Shown piece by piece: positions 13 to 21,876 of a DNA stretch of 64,000 bases. The notes under the pieces are model-generated. The model saw nothing but the letters and a program-made list of their open reading frames with translations. It made no database searches and was not told the origin of the DNA. This DNA is from Acidobacteriota bacterium (GTDB lineage Bacteria > Acidobacteriota > UBA890 > WLXD01), in contig CBDBHB010000009.1 in NCBI GenBank assembly GCA_965205505.1, positions 1,056,001 to 1,120,000 of the forward strand. The letters run 5' to 3'. The position numbers were made by a program, and so were the translations under genes. The number at the start of each line of letters is the position of its first letter. Within the stretch, counting starts at the first letter, position 1.

Positions 13-3000
13 ATGGAGAATCACATGCGCTACAGGCTGGCCATCGCGTGGGCCTCTTTCTTGATCGCCGTCCTGTCCGCCGGGCCGAGCGGGGCACACG
101 TCGGGCCGCCGCCGGCAGCCCTCGATACGGCGGTTCCCGAGGCAATGCTGGCCAGGTTACGCTACCACATGGTGGGCCCGTCACGTGGCGGGCGGGTGAC
201 CGCCGTGGCCGGCCACCGTGCTCAGCCGGGACTCTTCTACATGGGCGCCAGCGGCGGCGGTGTGTGGAAGACAACGAACTACGGCCAGGACTGGTTCCCG
301 GTTTCCGACGGCTACTTCGCCACCGGCTCGATCGGGGCAATCGCGGTTGCCGAGTCGAACCCCGAGGTCGTCTACGTGTCGACGGGCTCCGACGGCCTGC
401 GCAGCAACGTCATCATAGGCAAGGGGGTGTACAAGTCGATCGACGCAGGCGCCACCTGGACACACATCGGGCTCGCGGAGACCGGCAATACGGGGGCGGT
501 GTTGGTTCACCCCCAAAACCCTGACATCGTCTATGTGGCCGCCATCGGCAATCCCTTCGCGTCCAATCCGGAGCGCGGCGTCTATCGCAGCCGCGATGCG
601 GGCGCGTCTTGGGAGCACGTGCTCTTCGTTTCCGACAAGACCGGTGCGGTGGACCTCGAGTTCGCACCGGGTCGGCCCGACATTATCTACGCCAGCACGT
701 GGGAGACCGAGCGCAAGCCATGGACGATCTTGTCGGGGGGTATGGAGGGGGGGGTCTTCAAGTCGGAGGACGGCGGTGACAGCTGGAGACGCTTGACCGA
801 TGGCTTGCCCACCGGGCTGCGCGGCAAGTCCGACCTCGCGGTGTCGGCCGCGGCTCCCGAGCGTGTGTACGTGCTCATCGAGGCACCGGAGTCCGCCGGA
901 GGGGTATACCGCTCCGATGACCGCGGCGAAACCTGGTCGCAGGTGACCGACTACCAGCCGATTCGCAACCGGCCGTTCTACTACTGCAACCTGCACGCCG
1001 ACCCGACCAACGCGGACCGGCTGTGGGGCATGGCGGAGGGGTTTCATCAGTCCGAGGATGCCGGCAAAACCTGGGAGACACGACGTGTGCCCCACGGCGA
1101 CAACCACGACCTGTGGGTGAACCCCGACGACCCGGACATCTGGATTCAGAGCAACGACGGCGGCGCCAACATCACGCGTGACGGCGGCGTCACGTGGTCG
1201 ACGCAGAACAATCAGCCTACCGCCGAGCTATACCAGGTCGATATTTCGGACGAGTTTCCCTATCGGCTATTCGCTGGACAGCAAGACAACAGCACCATCT
1301 CGGTTCCCAGCTTGCCGTTGACCAACCGTGCCGCTGGCCAGCAGGCCTACTGGCAGGAACACGGTGGCTGCGAGACGGGACCGGCCGTGCCGAAGCCCGG
1401 CGATCCCGATATCGTGTACGCCAACTGCAAGGGCCGCTTCGGGGTGTTCAACCGTCGTACGGGCCAGGAGCAACACTATTACGTCGGCTACTGGAACCTC
1501 TACGGCCGCAACCCCGAGGACCTGCCCTACCGTTTCCAGCGCACGGTGCCCGTGCACGTGTCGCCGCACGATCCCGATCGCGTGTATCACGCCTCCCAGT
1601 ACCTGCACGTGACCGACGACGGTGGCGTCACCTGGACAACGATCTCGCCCGACTTGACCGCCTTCGATCCCGAGACCCAGGTGGTCTCGGGCGCGCCGAT
1701 TACGCTGGATGTGACCGGCGAAGAACACTTCAGCGTGCTCTACGAGGTTCAGGAGAGCCCGCACGAGAACGGGGTGATCTGGGCGGGCGCCAACGATGGG
1801 CCGATCCACATAACCCGCGACGGTGGTGCCAGCTGGGAGAACGTCACACCTCCCGAGCTCGCGCGCTTCGGGCGCGTGCAGACCATCGAGGTGTCGCCGC
1901 ACGATCCCGCCAAGGCCTATTTGTCGGTGCTGCGCTATCAGCTCGGCGACTTCGCTCCCTACGTGTTCCGCACCCACGACTACGGGGCCAGTTGGACGCG
2001 CATCACGACGGGCGACAATGGAATTCCGGCGGACCATCCAGTGCGTGTCGTACGCGAGGACCCGGGTCGTGAGGGGCTGCTGTTTGCCGGCACCGAGTTC
2101 GGCATGTTCGTGTCGTTCGACGACGGCGAGCGCTGGCAATCGCTGCAGCTCAACCTGCCGGCAGTGCCGGTGACCGACATCAAGGTGGTCGATGCCGACC
2201 TGGTGCTCTCCACCATGGGGCGCAGTTTCTGGATCATGTACGACCTGTCGCCGTTGCGGCAGATCAGCGACGCTGTGGTGGGGTCGCCCTCGCATTTGTT
2301 CGAGGCGGGCGACGCGGTACGGTTCCGCGGCGGTGGCGGGTTTGCTGAGCCAGGTCCCGCCGACCCGCAGTATCCGCGGGTCGGCGCCAACATCGATTAC
2401 TGGCTGGAGCACGAGCTGCAGGGCGAGCTGACGCTCGAGATACTGGATGCTCGCGGCCGAATAATCCGTCAGCTATCGAGCGTCGAGCCCGGGGAGACGT
2501 TGGTCGTTCCAGAGCCCGGAATGCGCGAGTCGCGTCTCGAGCGCGCCGGCACGCCGCGGCTCGACACGGGCGCTGGGGCGCATCGTTATACCTGGGATCT
2601 GCGCTATCCCGGACCATGGTACGCCGACGGCAACCGGCGACGGCCAGGGCAGGGTGGCCCCATGGTGCCGCCTGGCGAGTACACGGCTCGACTCTCGCAC
2701 GGAGGCTGGTCTTTGAGCGTCGAGTTTGACGTGGTGATGGATCCGCGCGTCGTTGGCGAGGGTATCTCGGCGGCCGACGTACGTGCCCAGGCCGAGCTGT
2801 CGTTGCGGGTACGCGATACCTACGGCGCTGCCAATCTTGCCGTCGCTCGCATCAGCGAGGCGATGGCGAAGGGCGACGACGAACTTGCCGGCGAGCTGCG
2901 TGAGGTGTTGAACGCTTTGGTGGATGCACCCCGTCGCTACTCGCCGGTCATGCTGGTCGACCAGCTTCAATACCTCTACGACAACCTCAACCGCGCCGAT

Positions 3001-3099
3001 CAGCGGCCTGGCGGCGACGCCATCGCACGCCACCAGGAGCTGAAAGCGGAGCTCGACGGCCATCTGGAGCAACTGGAGCGGCTGCTCGGCGAAGGCTGA
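13..3099 (+). CDS. Secreted BNR/Asp-box repeat (VPS10/sortilin-like) beta-propeller glycosyl hydrolase-like protein
   Basis: Signal peptide; GPSRGGRVTAV N-terminal motif; many SxDxGxTW Asp-boxes; 1028 aa. Confidence 0.85.
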   Translation: MENHMRYRLAIAWASFLIAVLSAGPSGAHVGPPPAALDTAVPEAMLARLRYHMVGPSRGGRVTAVAGHRAQPGLFYMGASGGGVWKTTNYGQDWFPVSDGYFATGSIGAIAVAESNPEVVYVSTGSDGLRSNVIIGKGVYKSIDAGATWTHIGLAETGNTGAVLVHPQNPDIVYVAAIGNPFASNPERGVYRSRDAGASWEHVLFVSDKTGAVDLEFAPGRPDIIYASTWETERKPWTILSGGMEGGVFKSEDGGDSWRRLTDGLPTGLRGKSDLAVSAAAPERVYVLIEAPESAGGVYRSDDRGETWSQVTDYQPIRNRPFYYCNLHADPTNADRLWGMAEGFHQSEDAGKTWETRRVPHGDNHDLWVNPDDPDIWIQSNDGGANITRDGGVTWSTQNNQPTAELYQVDISDEFPYRLFAGQQDNSTISVPSLPLTNRAAGQQAYWQEHGGCETGPAVPKPGDPDIVYANCKGRFGVFNRRTGQEQHYYVGYWNLYGRNPEDLPYRFQRTVPVHVSPHDPDRVYHASQYLHVTDDGGVTWTTISPDLTAFDPETQVVSGAPITLDVTGEEHFSVLYEVQESPHENGVIWAGANDGPIHITRDGGASWENVTPPELARFGRVQTIEVSPHDPAKAYLSVLRYQLGDFAPYVFRTHDYGASWTRITTGDNGIPADHPVRVVREDPGREGLLFAGTEFGMFVSFDDGERWQSLQLNLPAVPVTDIKVVDADLVLSTMGRSFWIMYDLSPLRQISDAVVGSPSHLFEAGDAVRFRGGGGFAEPGPADPQYPRVGANIDYWLEHELQGELTLEILDARGRIIRQLSSVEPGETLVVPEPGMRESRLERAGTPRLDTGAGAHRYTWDLRYPGPWYADGNRRRPGQGGPMVPPGEYTARLSHGGWSLSVEFDVVMDPRVVGEGISAADVRAQAELSLRVRDTYGAANLAVARISEAMAKGDDELAGELREVLNALVDAPRRYSPVMLVDQLQYLYDNLNRADQRPGGDAIARHQELKAELDGHLEQLERLLGEG

Positions 3100-3193
3100 G
3101 GTGTGTCTCGTGTCGCGTTGCCGGCCGGTGGTGCGCGATCCGTGCACTGACGAGGACCAACGAGTTGCTGAGGTCGAGCGCGCGGCGCGGTTC

Positions 3194-4612
3194 TCAGGTG
3201 GTTTGGAACGCTCTCGCGCGGTACAGGAAATCGACGATGTTGCCCTCGTGGGGCTGCAACCAATTGAGCTGGACCGTCGGAATGGCGCCGAAGTTCAGCC
3301 GGTCGATGTTCGGGGCGTCCAGCAGGCTTCGGCGGAATCCGGCATCGCCGGTGATGGCAGTGGCCACCAGGGTGTCGCCGATGGCCCCGATCATTTGCTC
3401 CTGTGGGCACTCGACGACGGTCACGAAGGGGAACATGTACTCCTTGCCCGCCATCGGCTGCCCTGCGGTGTCGCAATGGACCACGGTCGGTAGTAGATAG
3501 TCGCAGCGCGCCTGCTCCACTAGCCGGCCGGCGTCGCGATACGACGCGGTGACATCCTCCACGCCCTCGGCGTCGAGATTGGCGTCGATATCCTCCGAGA
3601 TCGCCTTGGCCTGGCCCGGAACGGTGAACGCCGCCAACTGGGCGTCGTCGTTGTCCGGCGGAAGCGCCTCGACAGCGGCCAGGCGTGCGGCCAGGGCCGC
3701 CGCGATCTCACGCGTATGCCGCGACGCCCAGATGCCAGAACAGTTGATGCATGAGCGGCCGGCGTTCACCAGCACCGAATCGACCATGAGGTCGAGGTGC
3801 TGCTCCCAGTTGTCGACCATATCGTCACCGAAGAGGATCTTGCTGAACCCAGGACCGTGCACCTGAATGCCGGGGTGGCCACGGTACTGCTCGACAGTCG
3901 GCAGGCCGCCGAAGATCAGGCTGCGCTCGGTGTTGTTAAGCACCCCGGCGCCCACGTCGGGCCCCCCCGGGTAGACGGTGATCGCTTGACGCGGCACACC
4001 AGCCTCGAAGAACGCCTGCGACATGCGCCAGGGTGTCCAGGGCTCCTGCGGACCGGGCTTCAGCACCAGGCCGATCTGCAGAGGGATGACCGGCAGCCAC
4101 AAGGTGTGTACACCGGGCGAGTTCGACGGCAGCACCATGCCCAGGGCGTTGGTAGTCGATTGGTAGCTACGCATGACCCCGCCCTCCTCGCCGAAGCCGC
4201 GTGCCAGGATGTCGAGATCGAGATGGCGAGTGAGTGACTCGAGGATCTCGTCCATGTGCTCGAGCACGAACCGGAGCTTGTCCATATTCATGCGGCACAT
4301 GTGCTCGGAGAGCCCGGTGGTGGCGGACTGCTGACGCACGAAGTCGGCGGGCGACTGGGTGCCGTCGCCGAGCGGCAGGTCGGCGGTCATGAACAGCTCG
4401 CCAGCCTTCTGCGTCATCGCCAGCAGATCAGATGGCGCCACTTCGCGCAGCACGTTGCGCGCCCGCTGCGCCTTGCGCATGTCGCGCGCAACCATCCCCT
4501 GGCTCGCCTGGCTCACCTTGGCGACGGGCTCGCCGGTGGCGAAGTGGACGACCTCCTCGGTCTCGAGGCTCTCGTATGGCTCGCCCCAACGTAGCACCGG
4601 AAAGTGGATCAT
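3194..4612 (-). CDS. Aldehyde dehydrogenase superfamily protein, LuxC/EhpG-like acyl reductase type
   Basis: PSNSPG, LKPG, catalytic Cys region NAGRSCINCS, EYMFPF; HGPGFSK replaces canonical ELGGK. Confidence 0.8.
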   Translation of the reverse strand: MIHFPVLRWGEPYESLETEEVVHFATGEPVAKVSQASQGMVARDMRKAQRARNVLREVAPSDLLAMTQKAGELFMTADLPLGDGTQSPADFVRQQSATTGLSEHMCRMNMDKLRFVLEHMDEILESLTRHLDLDILARGFGEEGGVMRSYQSTTNALGMVLPSNSPGVHTLWLPVIPLQIGLVLKPGPQEPWTPWRMSQAFFEAGVPRQAITVYPGGPDVGAGVLNNTERSLIFGGLPTVEQYRGHPGIQVHGPGFSKILFGDDMVDNWEQHLDLMVDSVLVNAGRSCINCSGIWASRHTREIAAALAARLAAVEALPPDNDDAQLAAFTVPGQAKAISEDIDANLDAEGVEDVTASYRDAGRLVEQARCDYLLPTVVHCDTAGQPMAGKEYMFPFVTVVECPQEQMIGAIGDTLVATAITGDAGFRRSLLDAPNIDRLNFGAIPTVQLNWLQPHEGNIVDFLYRARAFQTT

Positions 4613-4660
4613 CGGGTTCTTCTCAGCCGGCTCGGGTGATCGGTGGCGTCCGCTTGCGGA

Positions 4661-5773
4661 TCAGTACACGCCCACGGTCGTCGACTTGGCGATGCGCGCA
4701 AAGGGCCGCACGCCGCTGACGCCGTCCCAAGGGTAGCTCTCGTAGGGCTGCTGGCGCTCGCCCTCGTCGCGCTCCAGGAAACGCGGCATGAAGAACTCTT
4801 TGGTGAGCGTGGTCAACATCACCCGTCCAGTCTCTCCATAGGGCACGAGCCGGGTGGCATCGTCGGGATCCACGACCTGCACCGCGGCGCGCGGCTGCGG
4901 TGCGTAGTAGGTGATCCTGTAGCCGTTGTGCGGGCCGCTCGGTGAGCTCGCAGCAAGGCCCATGAGCGTGTTGCCGTAAGTCGGCGTCATGTAGGCACCG
5001 TCGAGCAGCTCTTCGTGCGCGAAGCGATTCCACTGCGGGGTGAACTCGGTGCCACCGGAGAAGATGCCGCTGATGCCGGCCTGGCGAATCGTCGTGCCCT
5101 TGTCCTCGAGGCGCAGTGCCAGAGCCTCGAGCAGTTTCGGGGTGGTAAACAGGCAGCGGATCTCGTGGCTCGACTCGAGGATCGTGATCGCCTGATCGAT
5201 AACGTGCTCCTGGTAGGCCTTGAGATGCTCGCTCCAGCCCTTCTTGATCAGCTTGATCACCCAGCGCGGGTCGAGATCAACACAGAAGCAGATGCCGCCG
5301 CGATGATGCGCCAGGTGCTCCACCGCCAGCCGCAGGCGCCGGGGGCCGCTGGGGCCGAGCATCAGCCAGTTAGCGCCGGGTGGGAAGTGCTCGTCGGGAA
5401 GTGTGTCGGAGAAGAGCTCGTAGTCGGTGCGAAAGTCGTCGATGTTGATGCGGCTCTTCGGCGTGCCCGTCGTGCCACCGGTCTCGAAGGTGAACACCGG
5501 GCGATCGGCGTACGCTTTCGGTACCCAGCGCCGCACCGGGCCGCCGCGCAGCCAATCGTCCTGGAAGTGGCCGAACTTCACCAGGTCGTCGAAGCCGCCG
5601 ATCGTGTCGCGTGGGTCCCAGTCCTGCTGCGCAGCCCACTGCAACCAAAACGGGCAGCCGGTGTCGGGATCGAAATGCCAGGCGATGATCGCGCGCACCT
5701 GCTCATCGAGCGCCTCGCGCGCGGCGGCGACGCGGCCTTCTAGATCGGGCTCCAAGGCCGGGGTGCTCAACAT
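4661..5773 (-). CDS. EhpF/LuxE/PaaK-like adenylate-forming enzyme (ANL superfamily)
   Basis: ETGGTTGTPK P-loop, TYGNTLMG, ERD motif; start could be 5773 or 5815. Confidence 0.7.
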   Translation of the reverse strand: MLSTPALEPDLEGRVAAAREALDEQVRAIIAWHFDPDTGCPFWLQWAAQQDWDPRDTIGGFDDLVKFGHFQDDWLRGGPVRRWVPKAYADRPVFTFETGGTTGTPKSRINIDDFRTDYELFSDTLPDEHFPPGANWLMLGPSGPRRLRLAVEHLAHHRGGICFCVDLDPRWVIKLIKKGWSEHLKAYQEHVIDQAITILESSHEIRCLFTTPKLLEALALRLEDKGTTIRQAGISGIFSGGTEFTPQWNRFAHEELLDGAYMTPTYGNTLMGLAASSPSGPHNGYRITYYAPQPRAAVQVVDPDDATRLVPYGETGRVMLTTLTKEFFMPRFLERDEGERQQPYESYPWDGVSGVRPFARIAKSTTVGVY

Positions 5774-8499: not shown

Positions 8500-9345
8500 C
8501 TACTGAACGGTCCCGCAGATGGCATGGGCTCTGATGTCGATGGAGGTACCGGCTACATTGAGCAGCGTGCACTCCCAGGTGTCGTCGTCCAGTGGGCGGG
8601 CCCTTCTCCAAACCGCTACGCCCGTCGCGTTGTCCGAGGTGCACCCGCCGCCAAGCAGCTTCTTCCCCACAGTACAGTCTTGAGTTGCTGTGCCTATAGT
8701 GCCGTCCGCGACGGTTATTACCCCCGATTCGAGTCTCTCCCAATTGGATACGCCCGGATCACCCTTCGCGCCGTTCGCTCCGGCCGGACCTTGAGCCCCC
8801 GTCGGTCCGGCAGCCCCCGTCGGTCCGGCAGGCCCCGTCGCTCCTGTAAGTCCTGTAGGTCCAGTCGCTCCAGTCACTCCAGTAGGTCTATCGGCTCCGT
8901 CTGCCCAATCCGCCCCGTCTGCGCCCCGGGATCCCCTCGGGCCAGGCGGGCCAGCATCTCCCAGGACCGCGCCTCCGCTGCCGATGAACACGTACCCTAA
9001 GAGGCGATTACCACGGCTGTCGACACCGCACTCGACCGACAGCCGGTGGCCTGCCGGATCCAAGTTGTCGGGTAGGTCCGCGACGATCAGCTCGGGGTCG
9101 CGCAACTGGACTGAGTCGATGTCCAGTTTGATGATGGAGAGCTTCGCAACTGGATTGCGGCAGAAATTCTCGCCGTAGATGAACATCTGCGTCTCATCGT
9201 CGCTGATGTCCACTCTGCGGATGACCGGCGAACCCGCAGAGCCCGATGCAGCTTCCGCCAACACGGGTAGCTCGAACTGCGCCAGCAGCAGGAGCGAGAC
9301 TGCCATGGTGAGCAGTGCCAGAAATGTGGTGATGTACCGCTTCAT
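8500..9345 (-). CDS. Secreted collagen-like (Gly-X-Y) protein with Cys-containing C-terminal domain
   Basis: RBS GGAGG before ATG 9345; signal peptide; GAT/GPT/GPA triplets; GKKLLGGGC motif. Confidence 0.75.
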   Translation of the reverse strand: MKRYITTFLALLTMAVSLLLLAQFELPVLAEAASGSAGSPVIRRVDISDDETQMFIYGENFCRNPVAKLSIIKLDIDSVQLRDPELIVADLPDNLDPAGHRLSVECGVDSRGNRLLGYVFIGSGGAVLGDAGPPGPRGSRGADGADWADGADRPTGVTGATGPTGLTGATGPAGPTGAAGPTGAQGPAGANGAKGDPGVSNWERLESGVITVADGTIGTATQDCTVGKKLLGGGCTSDNATGVAVWRRARPLDDDTWECTLLNVAGTSIDIRAHAICGTVQ

Positions 9346-9565
9346 GGCCGGACCTCCCCAGGTTGATAGCGGCACATGCTGAGGCTCCAGCGGACGCACG
9401 CACAACTCCATGAGAGCAACACGCGATTGCCGGTTTGAGTGCCGCAAGCGTCGGTATACGACCCACGAGCACAACCTATCTGTCGTGTCTACGGCGCACT
9501 AGAGAGAAAGCCGTAAAGAACTGTCAAGCGGCGCGGGCGATAACGGCCAAAGCGACAGCGACCAC

Positions 9566-12011: not shown

Positions 12012-12613
12012 GGTGTTCGACTCCAGTTGGGAGGCGGGGAGCGCTTGCCGCCCCGCTGTCGATAGGGAAGCTACCGGGAAGCCGGCCCTGATTCAAACGG
12101 CCGCGTGGACAACGCCCAGAACGAGACCCCGGGAGGAGGCTTCCTGGAACGTCCTCATCAACGCGGTGCGCCTGCCTCGCGTCATCAGGAAACCCTCAGA
12201 GAAAACCGGGAAGTTCCTCAAGTGTCTCGCGGCGTGCTGTTCTAGCTTGGCAAACAGTGAGAGCGACCCGACCCTCCTCGACCCGCCGCTCTCACGCAGC
12301 GAGTCGGCGAAGTGCTCACGCAGTGGTGGCGGCCGGGGTCGTTGGTTAAATCGGCAGATTGGCCAGTGGACAGGATCCCGGTTCGCTAGTCCTGTCTGAT
12401 GGGTGACGAGGGCCCAAACCAAGCGGGGCGATTACCGGAGACAGCCCTCATCGACGCCAGCCTGCTGTCGAGCGGGCCGTCCTGGCTGCCCAACGCTGGT
12501 CGCCTGGACCGAGCACGAACTGCCAACGTGTCGGTTTGAGTGCGTGAACCCTGTGCCGAGATGGGCCTCGCTACCCATCGGCGCGCCTTTGCTGGCGGCT
12601 CCGGTCCCTTTGA

Positions 12614-14761
12614 CTACCAGATCGAAGTCCACGACCGGTATTCTAACTTCTGGATCTGTGCGTCCGGCAGGTAGGGCGGCAGGCAGCTCATGAGCGCCGG
12701 CACCGCGGCCAGGTGGATGCCGGGACCGTTGGCTTTTACTGTGTCGCCGGCGATCACGGCACCCGCGATCTCCACTTCGGGCTCGATCTGGGCGTCTTTC
12801 TCAGCGTAGAACGCGCCCGCGACGAGAATGCCTGCCTCGTCGAAGACGACGTCCTCGGTTGAGGCTACCCCTATGGCGTCGTCGCAGGGGAAGGTGCGCA
12901 GCGGCAGCAGGTCTCCCGCCATCTCGGAGATGTGCTCGCTGATGATCGAGAAGGCGCCAGCGTAGCGTACGCCGGTGATGTAGGCAGGCGGCTGAGGCGT
13001 CTTGGTGTCCTGGATGACACCGCGGTTCATGAAGAGTCGGTGAACCAGGATGACGCCCGACCCGAACAGGCGGCCGTCGGCGGACGGCAGGATGGTTCCC
13101 GTGCCGGGGTCGACTGGCGAGGGAATCGCGGAATCGAGGTACTCGTTCATCTGGTCGATCATCCACTGGATAATGGCAGCACCGGCCGCACCGACGGTGA
13201 CGGCTGGAGGAATCCAGATGAAGCCATGCCGGTAGCCTTCGGGAAACGGGTTACTCGAGCCCGGGATCGCCTCCGGTACTTCTTTGAGGAAGGCCACGAC
13301 GCCGGTGACATCGATGCCGGGGGTTGGTGCTGGAGCGCCGCCGGGGCCCAAATAGGTCTCCTGGCCCCAGCTACCGTCGGCTTGCTCGATGTAGACGTCG
13401 AGCCGCGTACCCGGTGCGGCGTAAAGAAAGGCGTTGTCCACGAGCAGGTCGTAGCGCCTCTCGAGCTGCTCGGCGAAGGCTTGATCGGGGGTGAGCATGG
13501 CGCTGGCGCGGTTGAGGCTGACGTTTCCCTTGCTGCCACCATGGATATTCCAGAAGCTGATATCGAGCCCCGAAACGCCCGAGCCGTCGTTGCTCCCCCG
13601 CAGGTACTCGTAATAGCTGTCGTAGGTGGTGCTGGTGGCCAGATCCGTGAAGGCTTGGTCCTCCATCATCTCCACGAACTCGAAACTCAACATGTCATAG
13701 TCTTCGAGGAAATCGGTCCAGTGGTTGCCGGGATTCGTCCCGGCAAAGGCTCCTTGAGCGAGGTAGGCCCCGTCCAGGCTGTCCTTAATGCCGGCGGGGG
13801 TGGACGCGTCTGCCTCGCCCACCGTCGCCGCTCCCGAGTTGATCTCCGCGCGGCCACTGCGAACGCGGACCTCGGCATTGAGGGAGATGGGATTGCCGAC
13901 GAGCGGCGCGACCGCGGCAGCTAGGGTAGCGTTGAGCCCATCGTAGTTGTTCAAGATCTGGCTCGTGCCTTCCAGCGCGATGGCGGTTGATCCGCCTTTG
14001 CCGATCACATGCACGGAGCCATGCAGCTTGATGTCGTTCGCCAGGCTACCGACGGGCCCATCGCTCAACATGGCATTGTCCCAGATGCTATGGATACTGT
14101 TGCCCAGGACCACTTCGAGCGTGGCCTTCGACGGGTCTGCGGACGTCCCGAACGGGTCGGCAAGGTCCTCCGATGAGCCTTCGACGCGGAGCACGATCTG
14201 ATCGCGGCGAAAGCTCACGGGGCTTCCATCGCCGGGGTTGGTGTTGTCCGAAAGGTTTCTCAGGCCGACCTTGACCCCCCCCATCGGCAGCAGCTCATCG
14301 CTGAGCGCGAAGGGCGCACCCTCGGGTACCTGATACGGCTGCGAGTTAGGTACCACTTGATCAGCGGTACCGTCGCTGTTGGCATCGCGCAGGTCGTAGT
14401 AGAACGTATCCGGCACGCCCGTCACCGAGCCAGCGGCGTCGTCCTGTAGCAGGCCGGCAGGCCAGGTTCCCGGGGGCGCCGGAACGAACAGATACTCGTT
14501 GGACCAGCCGTTGGGGTCGACGAGGTAATCGTAGGAGAGCCAGGGGATTGCGAGCTCGACGGCAGCGTCAGCGGTCAGGAGTGCCTGAGTGCTCGCCGTG
14601 TTGTGGAGGCTCACCGTGTCCTCGATCAGGCTTCTCTGCAGCACTGACATCCCGAACAACGTCAGCCCAAGGGTCAGCAACAGCGCGATCAGCAAGGTGC
14701 TACCGCGCTCCTGCGCATCATCGAAGACCGGCATTGTGGTCTTGTCCTCGTGGCTGTCCAT
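12614..14761 (-). CDS. Large PilX-like minor pilin/adhesin
   Basis: QERG|STLLIALLL prepilin-like N-terminus without Glu5; ALLTADAAVE helix; C-terminal SWTSIW. Confidence 0.7.
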   Translation of the reverse strand: MDSHEDKTTMPVFDDAQERGSTLLIALLLTLGLTLFGMSVLQRSLIEDTVSLHNTASTQALLTADAAVELAIPWLSYDYLVDPNGWSNEYLFVPAPPGTWPAGLLQDDAAGSVTGVPDTFYYDLRDANSDGTADQVVPNSQPYQVPEGAPFALSDELLPMGGVKVGLRNLSDNTNPGDGSPVSFRRDQIVLRVEGSSEDLADPFGTSADPSKATLEVVLGNSIHSIWDNAMLSDGPVGSLANDIKLHGSVHVIGKGGSTAIALEGTSQILNNYDGLNATLAAAVAPLVGNPISLNAEVRVRSGRAEINSGAATVGEADASTPAGIKDSLDGAYLAQGAFAGTNPGNHWTDFLEDYDMLSFEFVEMMEDQAFTDLATSTTYDSYYEYLRGSNDGSGVSGLDISFWNIHGGSKGNVSLNRASAMLTPDQAFAEQLERRYDLLVDNAFLYAAPGTRLDVYIEQADGSWGQETYLGPGGAPAPTPGIDVTGVVAFLKEVPEAIPGSSNPFPEGYRHGFIWIPPAVTVGAAGAAIIQWMIDQMNEYLDSAIPSPVDPGTGTILPSADGRLFGSGVILVHRLFMNRGVIQDTKTPQPPAYITGVRYAGAFSIISEHISEMAGDLLPLRTFPCDDAIGVASTEDVVFDEAGILVAGAFYAEKDAQIEPEVEIAGAVIAGDTVKANGPGIHLAAVPALMSCLPPYLPDAQIQKLEYRSWTSIW

Positions 14762-14776
14762 CCGTCTATGACTTCC

Positions 14777-15547
14777 TCATTTCTTTTTCTTTTTCTTTTT
14801 CTTTTTCTTCTTATTAATCTCAGAGAGTTCCACGATGCTACTGATCGAGGGGATGCTCTCCAGGCGCGGGGAAATCACCGTCGCTCCGGTATAGGTGACG
14901 ATCTGGTCGGTGAGCAGGTCGTTGCGCTCGGCCGACACCGTCACGGCCAACCTTATGCTCTTCGGCACACCGCTGACGGGGTCGGTCACATACGTGAAGA
15001 GCGGCGTGCCATCGGGGTTGGGCAACACGTTGCGTGCCAGGACCGACACATCCCCCGTGACATTGTCCGTAGAGGTGATGGTTTCGTCGACTGCGTTGTA
15101 GGCAAAGGTCACGTCCTCTCCAGGATCGTTGAGGAAGCCGTCGCCGTTCTCGTTCTCGTTGTCATCTCGAGTGTCGTTGTCGTCGTTGGTGTCGAGCACG
15201 TCCCAGTTGTCGCCGTCGTCGTTGAAGTCGTGCCGCATGTCCATCCGGATCTGCAGGGTCGTGGCCGTGGCCACCGGGTACTTTGCCACGCCCTCGAAGG
15301 CACGGCCCGACGGATCGCTACCCGTCATACGTATCAGGCGCGCAATGTCGTCGACCACCAGGCGGACACCCTGCTGCGAGTAGGCGCGCAGCTCCGAGCG
15401 CGTCCCGATTTCCTGAACGTGGTAGCTCACCGTGTAGGCTGCAGCCATGAAGAACAGGAGTACGAGGCTACCGATGAGAACCTCGAGAATCGAAAAGCCC
15501 GCTGTCTCGCCGGCTTTCTCGACGTGGTTCTTCGCCCCTGTGTTCAT
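14777..15547 (-). CDS. PilW-like minor pilin with acidic Ca-binding-like loop and poly-Lys tail
   Basis: AG|FSILEVL class III signal; DxNDDGD-like repeats; ends in 11 Lys. Confidence 0.75.
   Translation of the reverse strand: MNTGAKNHVEKAGETAGFSILEVLIGSLVLLFFMAAAYTVSYHVQEIGTRSELRAYSQQGVRLVVDDIARLIRMTGSDPSGRAFEGVAKYPVATATTLQIRMDMRHDFNDDGDNWDVLDTNDDNDTRDDNENENGDGFLNDPGEDVTFAYNAVDETITSTDNVTGDVSVLARNVLPNPDGTPLFTYVTDPVSGVPKSIRLAVTVSAERNDLLTDQIVTYTGATVISPRLESIPSISSIVELSEINKKKKKKKKKKK
14780..14812 (-). repeat. (AAAAAG)n microsatellite encoding 11 consecutive Lys
   Basis: TTTCTTTTTCTTTTTCTTTTTCTTTTTCTTCTT on the + strand. Confidence 0.95.
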
Positions 15548-16083
15548 TGGGTTACCGGTTCCGTGAGCAAGCTAGCGGCCTTGAATGACGCCAGCGTCGT
15601 CGCGCGGGTGCCGCCGTATGCGGAGCGTCGAGCACTGACTGTTACGGTGATCCGCTTCACGCCGGCATACGGCAGATCGTCCTCGATGATCCACAGTCGC
15701 GACATGTCAGGATAACCAACCACCGGATCCTCCTGGGGACTGCCGGTGTTCACGGCCGTCAGGCCAGGATCGTCGTAGGCCAACGCGCGTAGCTCCTCGA
15801 GTTTTTGTTGCGCGAGCATGCTAGCGGTGGTCGTGAACTCCGCGTTCTTCGCCACCTTGATGGAGTTGAGCACCATCTCGGAGATGCTCATGAAGGCGAT
15901 GATGAAGATAGCCGAGGCGACCAGCACCTCGATGAAGATAAAGCCCCGCTGCGCCACCCTGCGCGTTGGCGCCGATGGCGACCGGGAACGACGAAGCGCA
16001 CGAGCGGACGCAGCCCCGACCCTGGGCCGGTGTCCTCTACCGGCAAAGCAAGCCGGTGACCACCTCGTCTGACGTGCGCTCAT
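15544..16083 (-). CDS. PilV-like minor pilin
   Basis: QRG|FIFIEVL; ASMLAQQKLEELRALAY; VKRITVTV. Confidence 0.8.
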   Translation of the reverse strand: MSARQTRWSPACFAGRGHRPRVGAASARALRRSRSPSAPTRRVAQRGFIFIEVLVASAIFIIAFMSISEMVLNSIKVAKNAEFTTTASMLAQQKLEELRALAYDDPGLTAVNTGSPQEDPVVGYPDMSRLWIIEDDLPYAGVKRITVTVSARRSAYGGTRATTLASFKAASLLTEPVTQ

Positions 16084-16419
16084 GATCTCTATTAACTAGA
16101 TAAACATTTTAAACATCTTGATTATATTTAAATGGATAGGATTGATGAGTGGCAAGCATTGAATAATATTAAAACTCTTTATAAGATAGTAACGGCTCCA
16201 ACCGCTCACCGAGGTCCACATCGGAGCGTGGTGTGGGTGCGCGGGCGGTCGCTCCGGCCGCTAAAGCCGGGGGGCGCCGCTCATGGCAGGCAACGGGTTC
16301 GAGTGGCCGTACGGGGCCCTCTTTTCAGAGACAGACAGCGTAATCGTTTAGAGCTTTGGAAGTTATTTGCTGTCTAATACTATTTATTAATATCAATTTG
16401 GAGGACAGGGCTTCTTCTC
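16084..16419. promoter_or_regulatory. Divergent intergenic control region with two AT-rich blocks
   Basis: AT-rich stretches at about 16088-16192 and 16340-16400 between the divergent pilin operons; GGAGG before 16420. Confidence 0.55.
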
Positions 16420-16845
16420 GTGATTGTCAAGACGATAGAGCTGATCTCAGGTGCTGCTCCGTGGTCCGAGGTGCGTGCTCGCTTCGACGCCGGGTTCGCC
16501 CTGCTCGAGTTGCTGGTTTCCGTGACCCTCGTGATGCTGGTGATCCCGTTCGTCGTCGGCCTGCAGATTGGCGCCATGAAGATGAACACCGGTTCGCTCG
16601 AGCTCGACGCAGGAGTCTGGGCGGCGCAAGCGAAAATGGAAGAGCTGTGGTTGGCGCCGTTTGCCTCAGTTGTTGACGGCACGGAAGATATCCAGCTGGG
16701 CGACGGCCGCTTGTTGACCATGACCTGGAGCGTGCAGCCGAGCCAGCCGGCCCCTGGCCTCAAGACAGTCACCATCGAAGTGGTCGACAGCTCCAACCCG
16801 GATGCCGAGCCCTCGCAGATGGTCCTCGTGAAGGTGCCGGAATGA
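16420..16845 (+). CDS. PilV-like minor pilin
   Basis: DAG|FALLELL; AAQAKMEEL; LKTVTIEV. Confidence 0.75.
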   Translation: MIVKTIELISGAAPWSEVRARFDAGFALLELLVSVTLVMLVIPFVVGLQIGAMKMNTGSLELDAGVWAAQAKMEELWLAPFASVVDGTEDIQLGDGRLLTMTWSVQPSQPAPGLKTVTIEVVDSSNPDAEPSQMVLVKVPE

Positions 16846-17538
16846 TGCGGCGCCCGGGCGAGCGCGGCGCGTCGATGATCGAGTTGCTGATCGCCACAAC
16901 GATCATGACGATCGTCTTCATGTCGGTCACGCGTGTGCTAGTGCGAACCCAGGTCGGCTACGAGTACAGCGGCTCCACCATAAACCTTCGGCAGAGTGCC
17001 CGTTTGGGTCTGAACCGAATGGTCAACGAGCTCCGGATGGCAGGCTACGGCCTCAGCGGCGTCTCGGACACATTCACCACCGCGAGCGCCGTGGAGGTGT
17101 CCTTCGCATCGGATATCGACGATGGAGCGCTGTCGCCGCCTTGCACAATCGAGAGCGGCGACGATGGCGTGGAGCACGTCACCTATCGGATCTCCACCGG
17201 CCTGCTGGAACGTCGTGTCGAGTGCTGGAGCGGTGGCTCCTGGGTGCTCGAGCAGTCGTTCCAGCCGATTACCGATCAGGTCGAGAACGCGGAGTCGAAT
17301 TTCACCTACTTCGACGCCCGTGGGCAACCAGATCGGCGCCTCCGGTGCGCCGATGAGCGCCACCTTGCGAAACCAGATACGCCGCGTGCGGATTACGCTG
17401 GCCTTGGTAGATAGTGCGCCTGAGTTGCCAGGCATGCCGGCGTCGCGTTATCGCGCCGCGACAGACGTGGCGATCCGCAACTTCTTCGATGGCGGAGCTG
17501 GTGACGGGGGCGGCAAAGGCTCCGGCAAAGGCAAATGA
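16842..17538 (+). CDS. PilW-like minor pilin (apparent +1 frameshift at GGG 17322-17324)
   Basis: ERG|ASMIELL; ELRMAGY; continues FTYFDA../GNQI...IRRVRITL...DVAIRN in the next frame; tail GKGSGKGK. Confidence 0.75.
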
Positions 17539-18912
17539 ATCGTGTAACGATGACGAGTCGCCGAGCGGTCCGTCGGGCCTTCGACCAGCAGGGCAGCATC
17601 CTGCTGACCTTGCTCATCATCATGTGCCTGACGACCCTCGTGCTCTCGAGTCTGACGGTGAGTTCGATCGAATGGACACTGGCCAGCAATCTCGGACGCG
17701 AGAGCCAGGCGTTCTCGTTTGCGGACTCAGGTATTCTGCATGCGCTCTCCGAAATCGAGTCGAGCGGCGACGATGTGGCAACGCTGCTGCTAGGCGCAGA
17801 TGGGACCGCTGGTACCGCCGACGACGGCCGTATCTTCAGCTCGGCGATTGTCGTGGGCGAGGGTGGCTACGACGTCTACGTCGAGGACAACAACGACGAC
17901 AGCGACCCGAGCACTGATAGCGACGGCATTGTCTACCTGGTCTCGACCGGGACTCACAAGGATGCGGCGCGGCGCGCGGGTCACCCTGAGCTCCAGTGGC
18001 GGCGGTGGTAGCGGCTGGGCTCCGCCGTACGGCGTGCTCGCCGGCAAAAAGATGCTGATCGACGTTAACGTCGAGCTGCGTGGTCCCCTTGGATCGGCGT
18101 TTTCCAACGACGACGCCACGATCGACAGCGGCCTGATCGACGTCAGTGTTGGCAGTGGCGACAAGCTGGGCCTCAAAGGCAACCCCACCATCGCTGGCGA
18201 GGTGCTTGATAATGACGCCGTCGTCGAGTACGAGGGCGCCCACGGTGGGCTCGAGTTGGTCGAGCTCCCCGAGTTCACCACCGACTCCATGCGCGATCTC
18301 GCCGACTATCGCCTCGGCGCCGATGGCAAGATTTACGACTCCGCCGGGGCACTGGTGCACGACACCAAAGGCGGCAAAGACAAGTGGGGGCAGTGGGATT
18401 TCGACAAGAAGAAATCGCTTTGGAAGCTCAAGGACGGGGTCGCCGGCGTCGACGATGGCACGTTCTATGTAGAAGGCGACGCACGCATCGAGTCGGGCGA
18501 GCAGCAGCTCGAGTTGTCGGTGATCGCGGCTGGCTCAGTCGAGTTCATCGGTAACACGAAGATCAGTGCTGCGATCCCGGGGCTGGTGGTGGCCGCTGAC
18601 GGCGACGTGGCGGCCGATGTGACGGGAAGTTTCACCGGTGGCTTTCTGGTCCGGGAGCAGCTGCGACTCACGGGAGAGCTCACCGTCTACGGTAGCATCG
18701 CGGTGCTCGACGAGGCCAAAAGCCACGATCTGATCTCAGACAAGACCGGTGCCCGGATCCAAGGCCAGACGGTCATCTTCCCGACAAGCGATGCCGTGTG
18801 GCCAATCGGTGGCGGGGGAGTGCTGCTGGCCAGTGAATGGCACGAGGAGCGCGTCGGAGCGGTTGCCTGGGTGGCGCAGACCAAAGGTAAGGGGAAGGGG
18901 GGCAAGAAATGA
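17535..18912 (+). CDS. PilX-like minor pilin (apparent +1 frameshift at GGG 17978-17980)
   Basis: QQG|SILLTLL; QAFSFADSGI; joins ORF 17800-18912 ending SEWHE...KGKGKGGKK. Confidence 0.72.
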
Positions 18913-19283
18913 GTCGGAAGGCGCGGCGAGCGATTGGCGCTCTGTTGCTCGCGATCCTGCCTTCGGCATGCGGGGTCGAGCGCGACCTGCCGGCCGAGCT
19001 ATATGGCGTCTGGCGCACCGACGAGCCGCGCTACGCCGACCGCTTCATCGAGCTCGCCGCAGGCGAGATCGTCTTCGGCACTGGCGGCGGGGATTCGTCA
19101 CAGCACGCGATTACGTCAGTGGAGGCGGAGGCCACTCCGGCGGGAACGCGCTACATCATTGAGTATCGAGCCTCCGATGACGACGCCAGCATCTCCTTCT
19201 CTTTTCTTGCCGAGCGTCGCGACGGCCTGGCGTTGAGGCTGCACAACCAGCCGCACTTCTCGTGGCGGCGCAGGGCAAGCTGA
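18909..19283 (+). CDS. Small lipoprotein of unknown function
   Basis: Lipobox LPSAC; LYGVWRTDEPRYADR; ATGA overlap with upstream gene. Confidence 0.7.
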   Translation: MSRKARRAIGALLLAILPSACGVERDLPAELYGVWRTDEPRYADRFIELAAGEIVFGTGGGDSSQHAITSVEAEATPAGTRYIIEYRASDDDASISFSFLAERRDGLALRLHNQPHFSWRRRAS

Positions 19284-19295
19284 GGCGCCGAGCCG

Positions 19296-19787
19296 ATGAC
19301 CTGTCGACTGCGAATGATCGCTCTCGAGCGACCCGGTTCGATCAGTCAGCGGTCGGGGTTCTCGCTCGTCGAGGTGCTGATCGCCATCGCGCTGATCGGG
19401 ACCCTATCGTCGATCATTGTGCCGGCGTACATGGACTCGCGCGAGGTGGCGCGCGTGGCGAGAGCTGCGTCCGACGTCGCCATAATGAGCCTCGACATTC
19501 AGCTCTTCAAGGAGGTCACAGGTCGCTATCCGGATACGCTCACGGAGGCCGGGTTGACCGGCGATCTCGATCCCTGGGGCTTCGCCTACCGGTACCTGCG
19601 GATCGAAGGGACGAAGGCCAAAGGAGCGCGTAAGGACCGCTTCCTGGTCCCGCTGAACTCTGACTTCGATCTGTACAGCGTCGGCAAGGACAACGGCACG
19701 AAGGCACCTCTGACACCGCCGGTCTCTCACGACGACGTCGTACGTGCCAACAATGGCTTGTATGTCGGTTTGGGCAGCGAATTCTGA
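19296..19787 (+). CDS. GspG/PulG-like prepilin-type protein
   Basis: SG|FSLVEVLI; YPDTL, DPWG, FDLYSVGKD motifs. Confidence 0.85.
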   Translation: MTCRLRMIALERPGSISQRSGFSLVEVLIAIALIGTLSSIIVPAYMDSREVARVARAASDVAIMSLDIQLFKEVTGRYPDTLTEAGLTGDLDPWGFAYRYLRIEGTKAKGARKDRFLVPLNSDFDLYSVGKDNGTKAPLTPPVSHDDVVRANNGLYVGLGSEF

Positions 19788-19797
19788 GTTGACGCGC

Positions 19798-21876
19798 ATG
19801 CAGCTCGACAGCAAGTTTCTCAAGACCCGCCTCGGTCGGCGCATGCTGGCGGTGTTCGTTGCCTGCGCCATGCTGCCGGTGACCGCGCTGGCGACGGTGA
19901 CGCTATTTACAACGCGGCACACCCTGAAGGAGCAGAGTCTCGCTCGCCTGAAGGAGGCCACCAAGACGCTGGGCATGTCTCTACTCAAGCGCCTGCTGTT
20001 CTGTGAGACCGAGCTGCACATCGTCGCCCGGGAAGTAGAAGCCCGGCGTTCCCCGGAGCCGCTGCACGAGGTGCCGCGCCGCTTTAACGGCATCGCGGTA
20101 GTGTGGGCTGGACAGGTGATCGACGCCTCTGGCCAGTCGTTCGCGATCGGCGGCCGGGACGACGCGGTTCTCGAGCAGCTCGAGACCGGACGCCCGGCCT
20201 TGAGCTTCGTCCAGCAGCCGGGCGTCGGCACGCCAACGCTGGTCATGTGGATCAAGGTTGATGGTACTCCCGACACGATGCTCGCCGGCTGGGTCAATCC
20301 GGGGTATGGCTGGGGTGACGGCTTGTTGGCTGGCCTGCCGCCCAACACCGAGCTGCTGCTGTTGACGCCGGGCGGCAGACTGCTGCTCAGCACCCTCGGC
20401 GACGACGAAGTCACGGCAGTGGCTGCAGTTGGTACGAGCACGGCGACCGAGAACTTCGAGACGAAGCTCGGCGGCCTCGACTTCGTCGCCAGTCGCTGGC
20501 CGGTGCCACTGCGCTACGCGTTCGGCAATCCGGGCGTCGTAGCGGTCGCCATGGAGCAAACCGCCACCGCTTTCGCCGCCGCCGGTGCATTCGGACGCAC
20601 CTACGCCCTCATCTGCCTGACTGCCGTTTGGGTCGTGCTTCTGCTGAGCATCGCTCAGATTCGACGCAACCTTGCGCCGCTCGACGAGCTCAAGGCCGGC
20701 ACGGAGCGACTCGCCCAGCGTGACTTCAAGTCGCGCGTCCAAGTGTCGAGCAACGATGAGCTTGGCGACCTGGCGTCGTCGTTCAATAGCATGGCGGCGC
20801 GTCTGGACAGCCAGTTTCAGCATCTCGCGACGCTGTCGGAGATCGACACGGCGATTCTCTCATCGTTGCATATCGATTCGGTCCTCGAGACGTCGCTGGA
20901 TCTGGCGAGCCGCAGCTATCCCGGAGTGCAGATAGGAGTGGGGATCTTGAGCGAAGATGCCACCACGATGTCGATGTACCTGGCCGGGTCGATGCGGCCC
21001 GAGCGGGTCGATGTTCCCGACCACGAGGCGGACGAGCTGAGCGGCGAGTCGCCGTGGCGCGAGATCGACTTGAGGTCCCGCGGCACCGGCATCACGCGGC
21101 CGCTACAGCGTCTCGGTGTAGAACGCTGCCTGAGCTTTCCGATTCGCCTGAACGGTGTGCTTGCCGGCGTGCTCTTGGTTGGCCTGGGTGAGCGCGCGAG
21201 CCTCGACGACGACCTCAACCAGCTGCGTCAGATCGGTGATCAGATCGGGGTGGCGCTAACGCATGCCAAGCTGATCGGCCAGTTCGACGACATGAAGCAG
21301 GGCGCCCTCACCGCGCTGGCGCGCGCCGTCGACGCCAAGTCGCAATGGACAACGGGTCATTCGGAGCGCGTAACGAGGCTATCGGTGCGCATCGGGCAGC
21401 AGATCGGCATTTCGGACCGGCGTCTGGATATCCTCAATCGAGGTGGCCTGTTACACGACATCGGCAAGATCGGCATCCCCAACGCCATCCTCGACAAACC
21501 GGCACGGCTCACCGAGGAGGAGTTCGAGATCATGAAGTCGCACCCGACGATCGGGGCGCGTATTCTCGAACCCATCATCGCCTACGCCGACGTTATTCCG
21601 GTGGTGCTGCAGCATCATGAGCGCGTCGACGGAGGAGGTTATCCGCTCGGCATCAGCGGTGGCGATCTCGACCCCGACGCTCGAATCATGGCCGTCGCCG
21701 ACGTCTTCGATGCCTGCAGCTCGGATCGCCCGTATCGTGAGGGCATGCCGCTCGAGCGCGTCATGGGCATCATCCGGGAGGGTTCGGGGGCCCACTTCGA
21801 GCCCCTGCTCGTCGAAGCGCTGGAGAGCGTGGTTGCCGAAGACGCCGAGTTCTTTAGTCAATTACGCGCCGCCTAG
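19798..21876 (+). CDS. Membrane sensor HD-GYP phosphodiesterase (periplasmic domain, HAMP, GAF-like, HD-GYP)
   Basis: Two TM segments; HAMP DELGDLASSFNSM; GHSERV, LLHDIGK, HHERVDGGGYP, VADVFDA. Confidence 0.9.
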   Translation: MQLDSKFLKTRLGRRMLAVFVACAMLPVTALATVTLFTTRHTLKEQSLARLKEATKTLGMSLLKRLLFCETELHIVAREVEARRSPEPLHEVPRRFNGIAVVWAGQVIDASGQSFAIGGRDDAVLEQLETGRPALSFVQQPGVGTPTLVMWIKVDGTPDTMLAGWVNPGYGWGDGLLAGLPPNTELLLLTPGGRLLLSTLGDDEVTAVAAVGTSTATENFETKLGGLDFVASRWPVPLRYAFGNPGVVAVAMEQTATAFAAAGAFGRTYALICLTAVWVVLLLSIAQIRRNLAPLDELKAGTERLAQRDFKSRVQVSSNDELGDLASSFNSMAARLDSQFQHLATLSEIDTAILSSLHIDSVLETSLDLASRSYPGVQIGVGILSEDATTMSMYLAGSMRPERVDVPDHEADELSGESPWREIDLRSRGTGITRPLQRLGVERCLSFPIRLNGVLAGVLLVGLGERASLDDDLNQLRQIGDQIGVALTHAKLIGQFDDMKQGALTALARAVDAKSQWTTGHSERVTRLSVRIGQQIGISDRRLDILNRGGLLHDIGKIGIPNAILDKPARLTEEEFEIMKSHPTIGARILEPIIAYADVIPVVLQHHERVDGGGYPLGISGGDLDPDARIMAVADVFDACSSDRPYREGMPLERVMGIIREGSGAHFEPLLVEALESVVAEDAEFFSQLRAA

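Follow-up and report, generated by a model that had tools for sequence, protein, structure and literature searches.

Introduction

The GspI-GspJ-GspK proteins form the pseudopilus tip complex of type II secretion systems (T2SS), and the last subunit of this complex lacks the glutamate at position 5 (Glu5). In this study, we analyzed a 64,000-nucleotide stretch of an Acidobacteriota genome (assembly GCA_965205505.1, contig CBDBHB010000009.1; G000:C9:1056001-1120000 in our notation, hereafter the window); the genome comprises 5.98 Mb on 9 contigs with about 64% G+C. Two divergent triplets of genes for PilV-, PilW- and PilX-like minor pilins (V, W and X) can be read from the sequence of the window, the left set (V_L, W_L and X_L) at 12614-16083 on the minus strand and the right set (V_R, W_R and X_R) at 16420-18912 on the plus strand. 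Our best reading, to which we give a probability of roughly 0.55, is that a decaying ancestral tip module lies here beside a later-acquired, mostly intact module of the ComZ/PilX-solenoid kind, served by filament machines encoded on contig C6.

As in GspIJK, the genes follow the I-J-K (V-W-X) order and the last subunit is free of Glu5; the right set stands beside a gene for a GspG-type pilin, and V_L and V_R give weak GspI matches. The locus differs from that system in that the GspK models match neither X_L nor X_R, the predicted fold of X_L is ComZ-like, there is no GspH gene, and no E, F or D genes adjoin the sets.

ComZ is a competence pilin of Thermus thermophilus that binds DNA and whose solenoid has been argued to fit the pilus tip only (PMC6561018). 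X_L is predicted to share with ComZ an N-terminal pilin helix and sheet and a large β-solenoid inserted before the last strand, and because neither protein would fit in the fibre body, a tip position is argued for both. They differ in sequence, with 12-19% identity, and in length, X_L having an extra insert and about 200 residues more. DNA binding and a PilA2-like partner belong to ComZ. The gene contexts also differ, that of X_L being a V-W-X trio.

In cyanobacteria, a solenoid PilX has been proposed to replace the PilY1 cap, and two core V/W/X sets ('Com' and 'EPS' types) serve to prime two filament types that one machine builds (PMC13759059, Schuergers et al. 2026). The likeness to our locus lies in several V/W/X sets per genome that share a machine, in a PilX without Glu5 and with an ice-binding-protein-like solenoid, and in lineage-specific domains grafted on some PilX proteins (PMC13759059). 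In contrast, the present genome belongs to another phylum, neither set has a FimT/FimU-type adapter gene, one of the sets is accompanied by genes for a GspG-type pilin, a lipoprotein and an HD-GYP protein, and one is a pseudogene array.

Myxococcus xanthus has three alternative minor-pilin/PilY1 clusters for one type IVa pilus (T4aP) machine; cluster_1 or cluster_3 alone is enough, and the cluster_2 proteins were undetected (PMC7541494). Redundant alternative priming or tip modules are the shared feature. Each M. xanthus cluster, however, encodes four minor pilins and PilY1, whereas the sets described here have three genes and no adjoining PilY1-type gene. As a concept, interchangeable tip modules are already published (PMC7541494, PMC13759059), and multiple core minor-pilin sets with a solenoid PilX are likewise in print (PMC13759059, PMC7541494, PMC6561018). 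The new elements here are an old and a new module side by side with natural decay variants, and lysine tails on minor pilins.

Results

Organization of the two V-W-X sets

The left set consists of V_L (15544-16083), a PilV/GspI-like minor pilin whose leader (ending at G47 and followed by FIFIE) would be unusually long if translation starts at ATG 16083; W_L (14777-15547), a PilW/GspJ-like minor pilin (G17, then FSILE) with an Asp/Asn-rich insert and a C-terminal tail of eleven lysines; and X_L (12614-14761), a 715-aa ComZ-type PilX with a prepilin-like N-terminus (G20, then STLLI) and a predicted pilin fold plus β-solenoid. A divergent spacer of 336 bp (16084-16419), with AT-rich flanks and a GC-rich core, separates it from V_R (16420-16845; G25, then FALLE), a GspI/PilV-like minor pilin that is intact in the window strain. 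Next comes the PilW/GspJ-like W_R (16842-17538; G9, then ASMIE), read in two frames (16842-17414 and 17122-17538) with a +1 change at the CCC run at 17317-19. The PilX gene X_R (17535-18912; G20, then SILLT) is also read in two frames (17535-18011 and 17800-18912), with a break at a short GC repeat at about 17965-17981.

By direct reading, V and W carry Glu5 and X lacks it in both sets. An initial annotation of this DNA had said as much, and its V-W-X order on opposite strands is confirmed from the open reading frames (ORFs) and motifs. The length of about 460 aa that it gave for X_R is true only when the break is read through, which yields 459 aa; otherwise the gene is split by a frameshift. 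The class III signal peptide pattern, namely a short basic leader ending in Gly, about 20 hydrophobic residues and Glu at +5 (the Glu5 that is missing from the capping subunit), was read in all seven pilin-like proteins, and our own motif scan agreed.

The left set lies between a conserved operon and its old neighbour

Comparison of V_L with V_R and of W_L with W_R gave no BLASTP match at E≤0.01, and X_L matched X_R over 44 residues at E 0.01, in line with the earlier description of the sets as very divergent. The right set heads a conserved operon in the order V-W-X-lipoprotein-pilin-HD-GYP. Orthologues of the C-terminal 308 residues of X_R occur in 5 of 40 related genomes (G002, G004, G007, G009 and G010), all from its own family, of which they make up 5 of 10 genomes. 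V_R is 37-41% identical to the V proteins of G002, G004, G009 and G010, and HD-GYP orthologues with 49-50% identity follow the pilin gene in G004, G009 and G010.

G009 and G010 have HD-GYP, pilin, lipoprotein, X, W and V in succession, then about 630 bp to a PQQ-propeller gene (PQQ449) and dut. The same PQQ-propeller gene and dut flank the window locus, and in G009 and G010 no left set stands between them and the operon. A 47-nt piece of this V-to-PQQ spacer (80-83% identity over 44-47 nt) sits in the window on the far side of the left set, at 12325-12371. Because of the synteny in G009 and G010 and the 47-nt piece, which marks the ancestral flank, we regard the left set as an insertion of about 3.7 kb, or at least an addition, in this lineage. 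No flanking repeats were found around it.

None of the 40 relatives has an orthologue of X_L or W_L; weak partial matches of X_L to other X paralogues were seen in 11, and N-terminal matches of W_L over about 65 residues in 14. Scans of genome contigs for loci of X_L relatives found none. A metagenome contig (L054) does carry orthologues of V_L, W_L and X_L at 50, 54 and 63% identity, in an unrelated neighbourhood, with a further V-W and X trio a few kb away. On L054, at 2317-5373, a V-W pair is divergent from a 591-aa X, which is another head-to-head minor-pilin layout.

We built a FastTree phylogeny of 116 X proteins. X_L and its metagenomic relatives formed a group with support 100, nested within a clade of long proteins, two other X proteins of the same genome fell in another starred clade, and the X_R type stood on a separate long branch, so that X_L, the X_R type and the two other X proteins form three separate starred groups. 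The genome holds two further orphan trios in X-V-W order (C8:867361-869779 and C9:1492014-1494736), and minor pilins also lie inside its T4aP cluster. The two sets are not the mirror-image twins that they had been taken for: the right set belongs to a conserved ancestral operon, whereas the left set is an inserted module of another deep X lineage.

The right-type operon is patchy across its own family. G005 keeps the lipoprotein, pilin and HD-GYP genes without a co-directional V-W-X, and no HD-GYP orthologue was found in G001, G002, G003 or G006. The opposite strand of the G005 locus (L062, G005:C5:549000-566000) carries an X-V-W trio at a distance of 2.3 kb, and the HD-GYP gene of this locus is interrupted by a stop codon or a frame change.

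Frame breaks in the right set differ among strains

In G002, G009 and G010, the W and X orthologues are single ORFs of 227-233 and 436-447 aa, with the tblastn pieces in one frame. The stretch is present in 20 public runs from 11 studies, and Logan contigs of four runs (X1, X4, X5 and X9) were compared; variants were called from one contig each at depth 4-8, and indels were applied by script to derive the frames. Over 12400-14771 and 14823-19900, run X1 is identical to the window (0 differences, 0 gaps), but it is possibly the source sample and so lends weak independent support. In the window and X1, V_R is intact (141 aa), W_R is broken (190 aa), X_R is broken (158 aa) and the left set is open.

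Run X4, from another study, lacks one base at 17317 and has a 12-nt unit added at 17510, a T added after 17931 and GC added after 17971. Here V_R is intact (141 aa), W_R is open (235 aa), X_R is broken by the added T (159 aa) and the left set is open. Run X9, from a third study, lacks one base at 17317 and one at 16686, has a T added after 13777, and is the same as the window at 17971; its V_R is broken (98 aa), W_R is open (231 aa), X_R shows the same GC loss as the window (158 aa), and X_L is broken. The pieces from run X5 were at most 38 nt and uninformative. Taken together, 3 of 3 strains have an interrupted X_R, caused by two distinct mutations; a broken W_R is confined to the window strain and a broken V_R to X9. 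In the relatives, X of the congener G004 changes frame twice, and X of G007 is without its N-terminal 108 residues. The right-type module looks dispensable and eroding in this family.

One alternative is that errors of assembly or sequencing produced the breaks and that the organism itself has an intact right set. The window assembly has only 9 contigs and contains other frame changes, the breaks among relatives occur in the few-contig G004 and G007 and not in the many-contig G009 and G010, and both sites are short repeats, CCC and (GC)3. However, the independently built X1 contigs match the window throughout the two intervals compared, X9, which comes from a different study, agrees with the window at 17971, and X4 and X9 differ from the window at other positions in a strain-like manner, which makes artefacts improbable.

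Slipped-strand phase variation, with short repeats that reversibly switch W_R and X_R, would also put indels at such places: position 17317 is part of a C run and 17971 of a GC repeat, samples differ at both, and the 12-nt unit coding for GKGS varies too. Yet the tracts are merely 3 nt and 3 units long, the changes at 17931 (+T), 16686 (-1) and 13777 (+T) lie outside repeats, and no run showed mixed alleles, though contigs hide rare variants. We judge switching of this kind very improbable.

A rough comparison with the congener G003, which covered eleven 20-kb pieces, showed internal frame changes in 2-3 of 66 coding-like ORFs. The two breaks of the right set within 2.1 kb stand well above the genome background, though they are not unique. 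A first background estimate of 11 of 88 genes was rejected, since most of its junctions were gene boundaries or shadow frames. By the comparison with G003, the assembly or the organism may carry unusually many broken genes.

X_L has a predicted ComZ-type fold

A search of 5.8 billion protein clusters yielded only 9 relatives of X_L (59-99% identity), namely its own cluster and 8 at 59-67%. A profile of X_L relatives gathered 263 cluster representatives at E≤1e-3, most of them 480-900 aa long. PilX_N was present in 34 of 50 scanned profile relatives at E≤0.01, in 19 of them above the cut-off, and the atlas neighbours are PilX_N clusters.

An AlphaFold2 model of X_L from a 112-sequence alignment reached a predicted local distance difference test (pLDDT) score of 87.7 and a predicted template modelling (pTM) score of 0.85; a model from 9 sequences (pLDDT 37.3) was discarded. 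The model shows a long N-terminal helix, a pilin sheet, a β-solenoid at about residues 224-700 and a final strand that returns into the sheet. The extra insert, of about 170 residues, lies inside the solenoid at about residues 400-590. In a Foldseek search with the model, the top match was ComZ of T. thermophilus (6QVI, E 7e-12), followed by ice-binding proteins at E>0.1. VIA-align gave Z 27.9 against 6QVI, with 428 residues aligned over model residues 54-715, and Z 13-14.6 for ice-binding solenoids, on X_L residues 224-690. From this model we confidently predict that X_L is a ComZ-type solenoid tip pilin.

The fold model was made for X_L, and the X_R type was tied to the family by profile. 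A profile of three X_R-type orthologues matched the X family profile with 97.2% probability (E 3.7e-11, 358 columns); against the narrow 9-sequence X_L alignment, the N-terminus alone matched. Because the X_R-type profile matches the family profile, both X proteins are probably of the same kind, and X_R would also be a PilX of the ComZ/solenoid type. The initial annotation spoke of a large PilX with an adhesin built in. With its β-solenoid and ComZ fold, the X_L model agrees with a built-in head, so that the phrase is a fair description as far as the model goes, and the architecture is a published one.

Family-level identity of the V, W and X proteins

Against the Pfam N_methyl model (cut-off 21.2), V_L scored 18.9, W_R 18.8 and V_R 16.6, all below the cut-off, and W_L had no match. 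V_L scored 33.2 bits with TIGR02523 PilV (cut-off 52.2) and 22.5 with GspI (TIGR01707, cut-off 44.35), and V_R scored 17.1 with GspI and 14.5 with T2SSI (PF02501, cut-off 25). With PilX_N (PF14341, cut-off 25.5), X_L and X_R reached 16.8 and 17.2 bits, respectively. W_L matched no Pfam or NCBIfam model; W_R gave weak prepilin-type matches and none to the PilW or GspJ models. Aligned with nine relatives in the W position, W_L shares the columns RQ..R, ELR.AG, ITY, F.Y.D and VRN-type. Searches of Protein Data Bank (PDB) sequences with the V and W profiles returned N-terminal helix matches only, and the X_L profile gave only chance-level or N-terminal helix matches there. That the genes encode minor pilins of the tip or priming type, as first annotated, is thus supported at the motif level and, for X_L, also by the predicted fold.

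At 15090-15230 (residues about 118-165), W_L has an Asp/Asn-rich insert of about 40 residues with DxDxDG-like runs. The insert is shared with the metagenomic orthologue and missing from every other aligned W, and it may be a calcium-binding loop.

The divergent spacer

Against the background of the GC-rich genome, the spacer stands out by its AT-rich flanks, and it carries 8 single-nucleotide polymorphisms (SNPs) among strains. No Rfam family reached its gathering score in the window, with three chance-level matches at 15900-16600 (E 0.3-8), and the GC-rich core folds no better than shuffled sequences (z-score -0.55). The spacer has no sigma-54 site, the count in the window being 24 against 25.6 by chance, and one sigma-70-like site at 16101-16128 (+). 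It has no invertible repeat, the only inverted repeats being the N-terminal coding motifs of the two V genes. The spacer is also without similarity to the upstream region of V in the relatives; from this we infer that the insertion may have displaced the native V_R promoter. The sole conserved non-coding piece around the locus is the 47-nt element described above.

The initial annotation had proposed two working, interchangeable tip modules, possibly transcribed reciprocally from this one control region. The head-to-head layout with its AT-flanked 336-bp spacer is what such a switch might look like, and alternative minor-pilin sets on one machine have precedents (PMC7541494, PMC13759059). Against reciprocal expression stand, however, an X_R that is broken in every strain compared, a W_R broken in the window strain and a V_R broken in another, and the spacer offers no invertible repeat, riboswitch or sigma-54 site and is not the ancestral upstream region of V_R. 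We therefore regard a shared switch as quite improbable.

Lysine tails on three of the six minor pilins

The C-terminus of W_L is N-K11, which (AAGAAA)5 at 14780-14809 encodes. W_R ends in GKGSGKGK (17490-17535), with one 12-nt unit more in run X4, and X_R ends in KGKGKGGKK (18880-18909). The orthologues are without lysine tails. Only 6 of 6362 coding-like ORFs of the genome have at least 5 Lys in the last 12 residues, and W_L and X_R are two of the six. The contigs of all runs end at the K-repeat (14772-14822), and the copy number of the W_L repeat is thus that of the window assembly alone.

The tip minor pilin FimT binds DNA electrostatically via positive C-terminal residues (PMC12123422). 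Positive charge at the C-terminus of a tip minor pilin is what the tails of W_L, W_R and X_R have in common with FimT; no homology is claimed, and here the charge lies in low-complexity K or GK tails whose binding is putative. By this analogy, the tails hint at the capture of DNA or another polyanion, which makes them a testable lead.

A fuller account would be that tip-module replacement has been caught midway: a horizontally acquired V-W-X cassette with a ComZ-type X, standing head-to-head with the resident one, would be taking over while the resident is lost by independent frameshifts, and lysine tails, grown by repeat expansion on three of six tip subunits in this species alone, would make the tip an electrostatic grabber for DNA or polyanion. 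We put this forward only tentatively and think it rather unlikely to hold in full.

Neighbouring genes and filament machines

The gene after X_R encodes a lipoprotein-like product of 124 aa (18909-19283, +; ...LPSAC...) with no Pfam match above cut-off. It is conserved between X and the pilin gene, and orthologues occupy the same place in G004, G005, G007, G009 and G010. Also on the plus strand, 384 nt past the end of X_R, is the GspG-type (pseudo)pilin gene (19296-19787; G21, then FSLVE). Its product is above the cut-off for N_methyl (26.9 bits) and T2SSG (22.3 bits) and below it for TIGR01710 GspG (40.7), with 49-61% identity in the same five relatives. The last gene of the conserved operon (19795-21876, +; start codon picked by comparison with orthologues) encodes a HAMP-GAF-HD-GYP sensor (HD_5 116.5, HAMP 50.2 and GAF_2 30.6 bits), likely a cyclic di-GMP phosphodiesterase. 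Elsewhere in the window, 3 kb from the locus, the gene at 8500-9474 (-) encodes 324 aa with triple-helix repeats of the collagen type (Pfam Collagen, 40 bits), and several PQQ/BamB-like propeller genes lie around the region.

Pfam found no pilus machinery among 30 ORFs of the window. The six T2SSE matches and three secretin matches of the genome lie on C6, C8 and at C9:2118522, none of them in the window. Hence the earlier statement that no ATPase or secretin gene is nearby stands, and the same statement for PilE fails because of the GspG-type pilin. Three type IV filament clusters lie on C6, one MSH/T2SS-like (36-56 kb), one of T4aP type (264-284 kb) with PilB, PilC, PilD, PilA and PilS/R, and one T2SS-like (284-296 kb), which bears out the proposal of a machine encoded elsewhere. 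A prepilin peptidase is encoded at G000:C6:269863-270741 (A24_N_bact 97.9 and Peptidase_A24 79.5 bits), and genes for two PilA-like pilins lie at C6:274047 and C9:719783. There is a fourth secretin on C8 and an open PilT-like gene at C9:2118516. The pilT beside pilB/pilC breaks inside the ATPase domain, between ...REDPD and ...IGEMRD (G000:C6:279779-280604; L045:15978-16721 and downstream). The right-type operon of G007 has a GspE-like ATPase gene of its own behind it; the window genome lacks a close counterpart of this gene (at most 38% identity). The PilY1 model (PF05567) matched nothing in the genome, but controls from other genomes were equally blank, so this search is uninformative.

Discussion

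We propose that this genome has two core minor-pilin modules unrelated by descent, each made up of a PilV/GspI-like, a PilW/GspJ-like and a Glu5-less ComZ-type PilX protein, the β-solenoid of which would cap the filament and carry a binding surface. The right module would be the ancestral one, at the head of its operon and degenerating in this species. The left module, intact in the window strain, would have been inserted later between the right operon and its old neighbour. Its three proteins may form a trimer that now supplies the priming and tip complex in place of the right set, and this complex could serve the filaments of one of the C6 machines, possibly those of the neighbouring GspG-type pilin.

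Several points weigh against this proposal. Every family match of the V, W and X proteins lies below the curated Pfam or NCBIfam cut-off, and among these proteins the predicted fold covers X_L alone. Each strain variant was called from a single contig (depth 4-8), and X1 possibly derives from the very sample that gave the window. The genome has other frame changes, so the breaks are not unique to the right operon, and X_L itself is frameshifted in run X9 by the added T (355 aa). Finally, the 32 coding SNPs listed across the locus comprise 22 non-synonymous and 10 synonymous changes, and the left and right sides do not differ in this ratio (X_L 9:5, W_L 2:1, right set 5:2, lipoprotein and pilin 6:2). 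Because the ratio lacks such a difference, the left set is not visibly better conserved.

The SNP ratio and the X_L frameshift in X9 keep alive the explanation that both modules, and perhaps their pili, are relics, with the whole locus under relaxed selection in a lineage that gives up pilus functions and neither set working. The ratio is alike in the left set, the right set and the lipoprotein and pilin genes, the pilT beside pilB/pilC is frame-broken in its ATPase domain, and the HD-GYP orthologue of G005 is also interrupted. Against it, the left set keeps open frames in the window, X1 and X4, no indel is seen in the pilin, lipoprotein and HD-GYP genes of X4 and X9 where these are covered, and frames are otherwise open in the two additional X-V-W sets and in the three machine clusters. 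Moreover, surface pilins are often highly polymorphic in amino acids for reasons besides relaxed selection, so that many such polymorphisms can have other causes. We therefore see a wholly relic locus as doubtful, and favour the reading of a decaying ancestral module beside a mostly intact acquired one.

The known picture of pilus biology is unchanged by this locus. The lysine tails offer a simple, testable idea of ligand capture. The locus extends a recently described rule, by which bacteria without PilY1 cap their type IV filaments with a solenoid PilX/ComZ and keep several alternative V-W-X sets for priming, to an uncultured lineage outside the cyanobacteria. Its value is evolutionary, as a concrete and datable example of the exchange of a pilus tip, in which the old module is decaying in strain variants.

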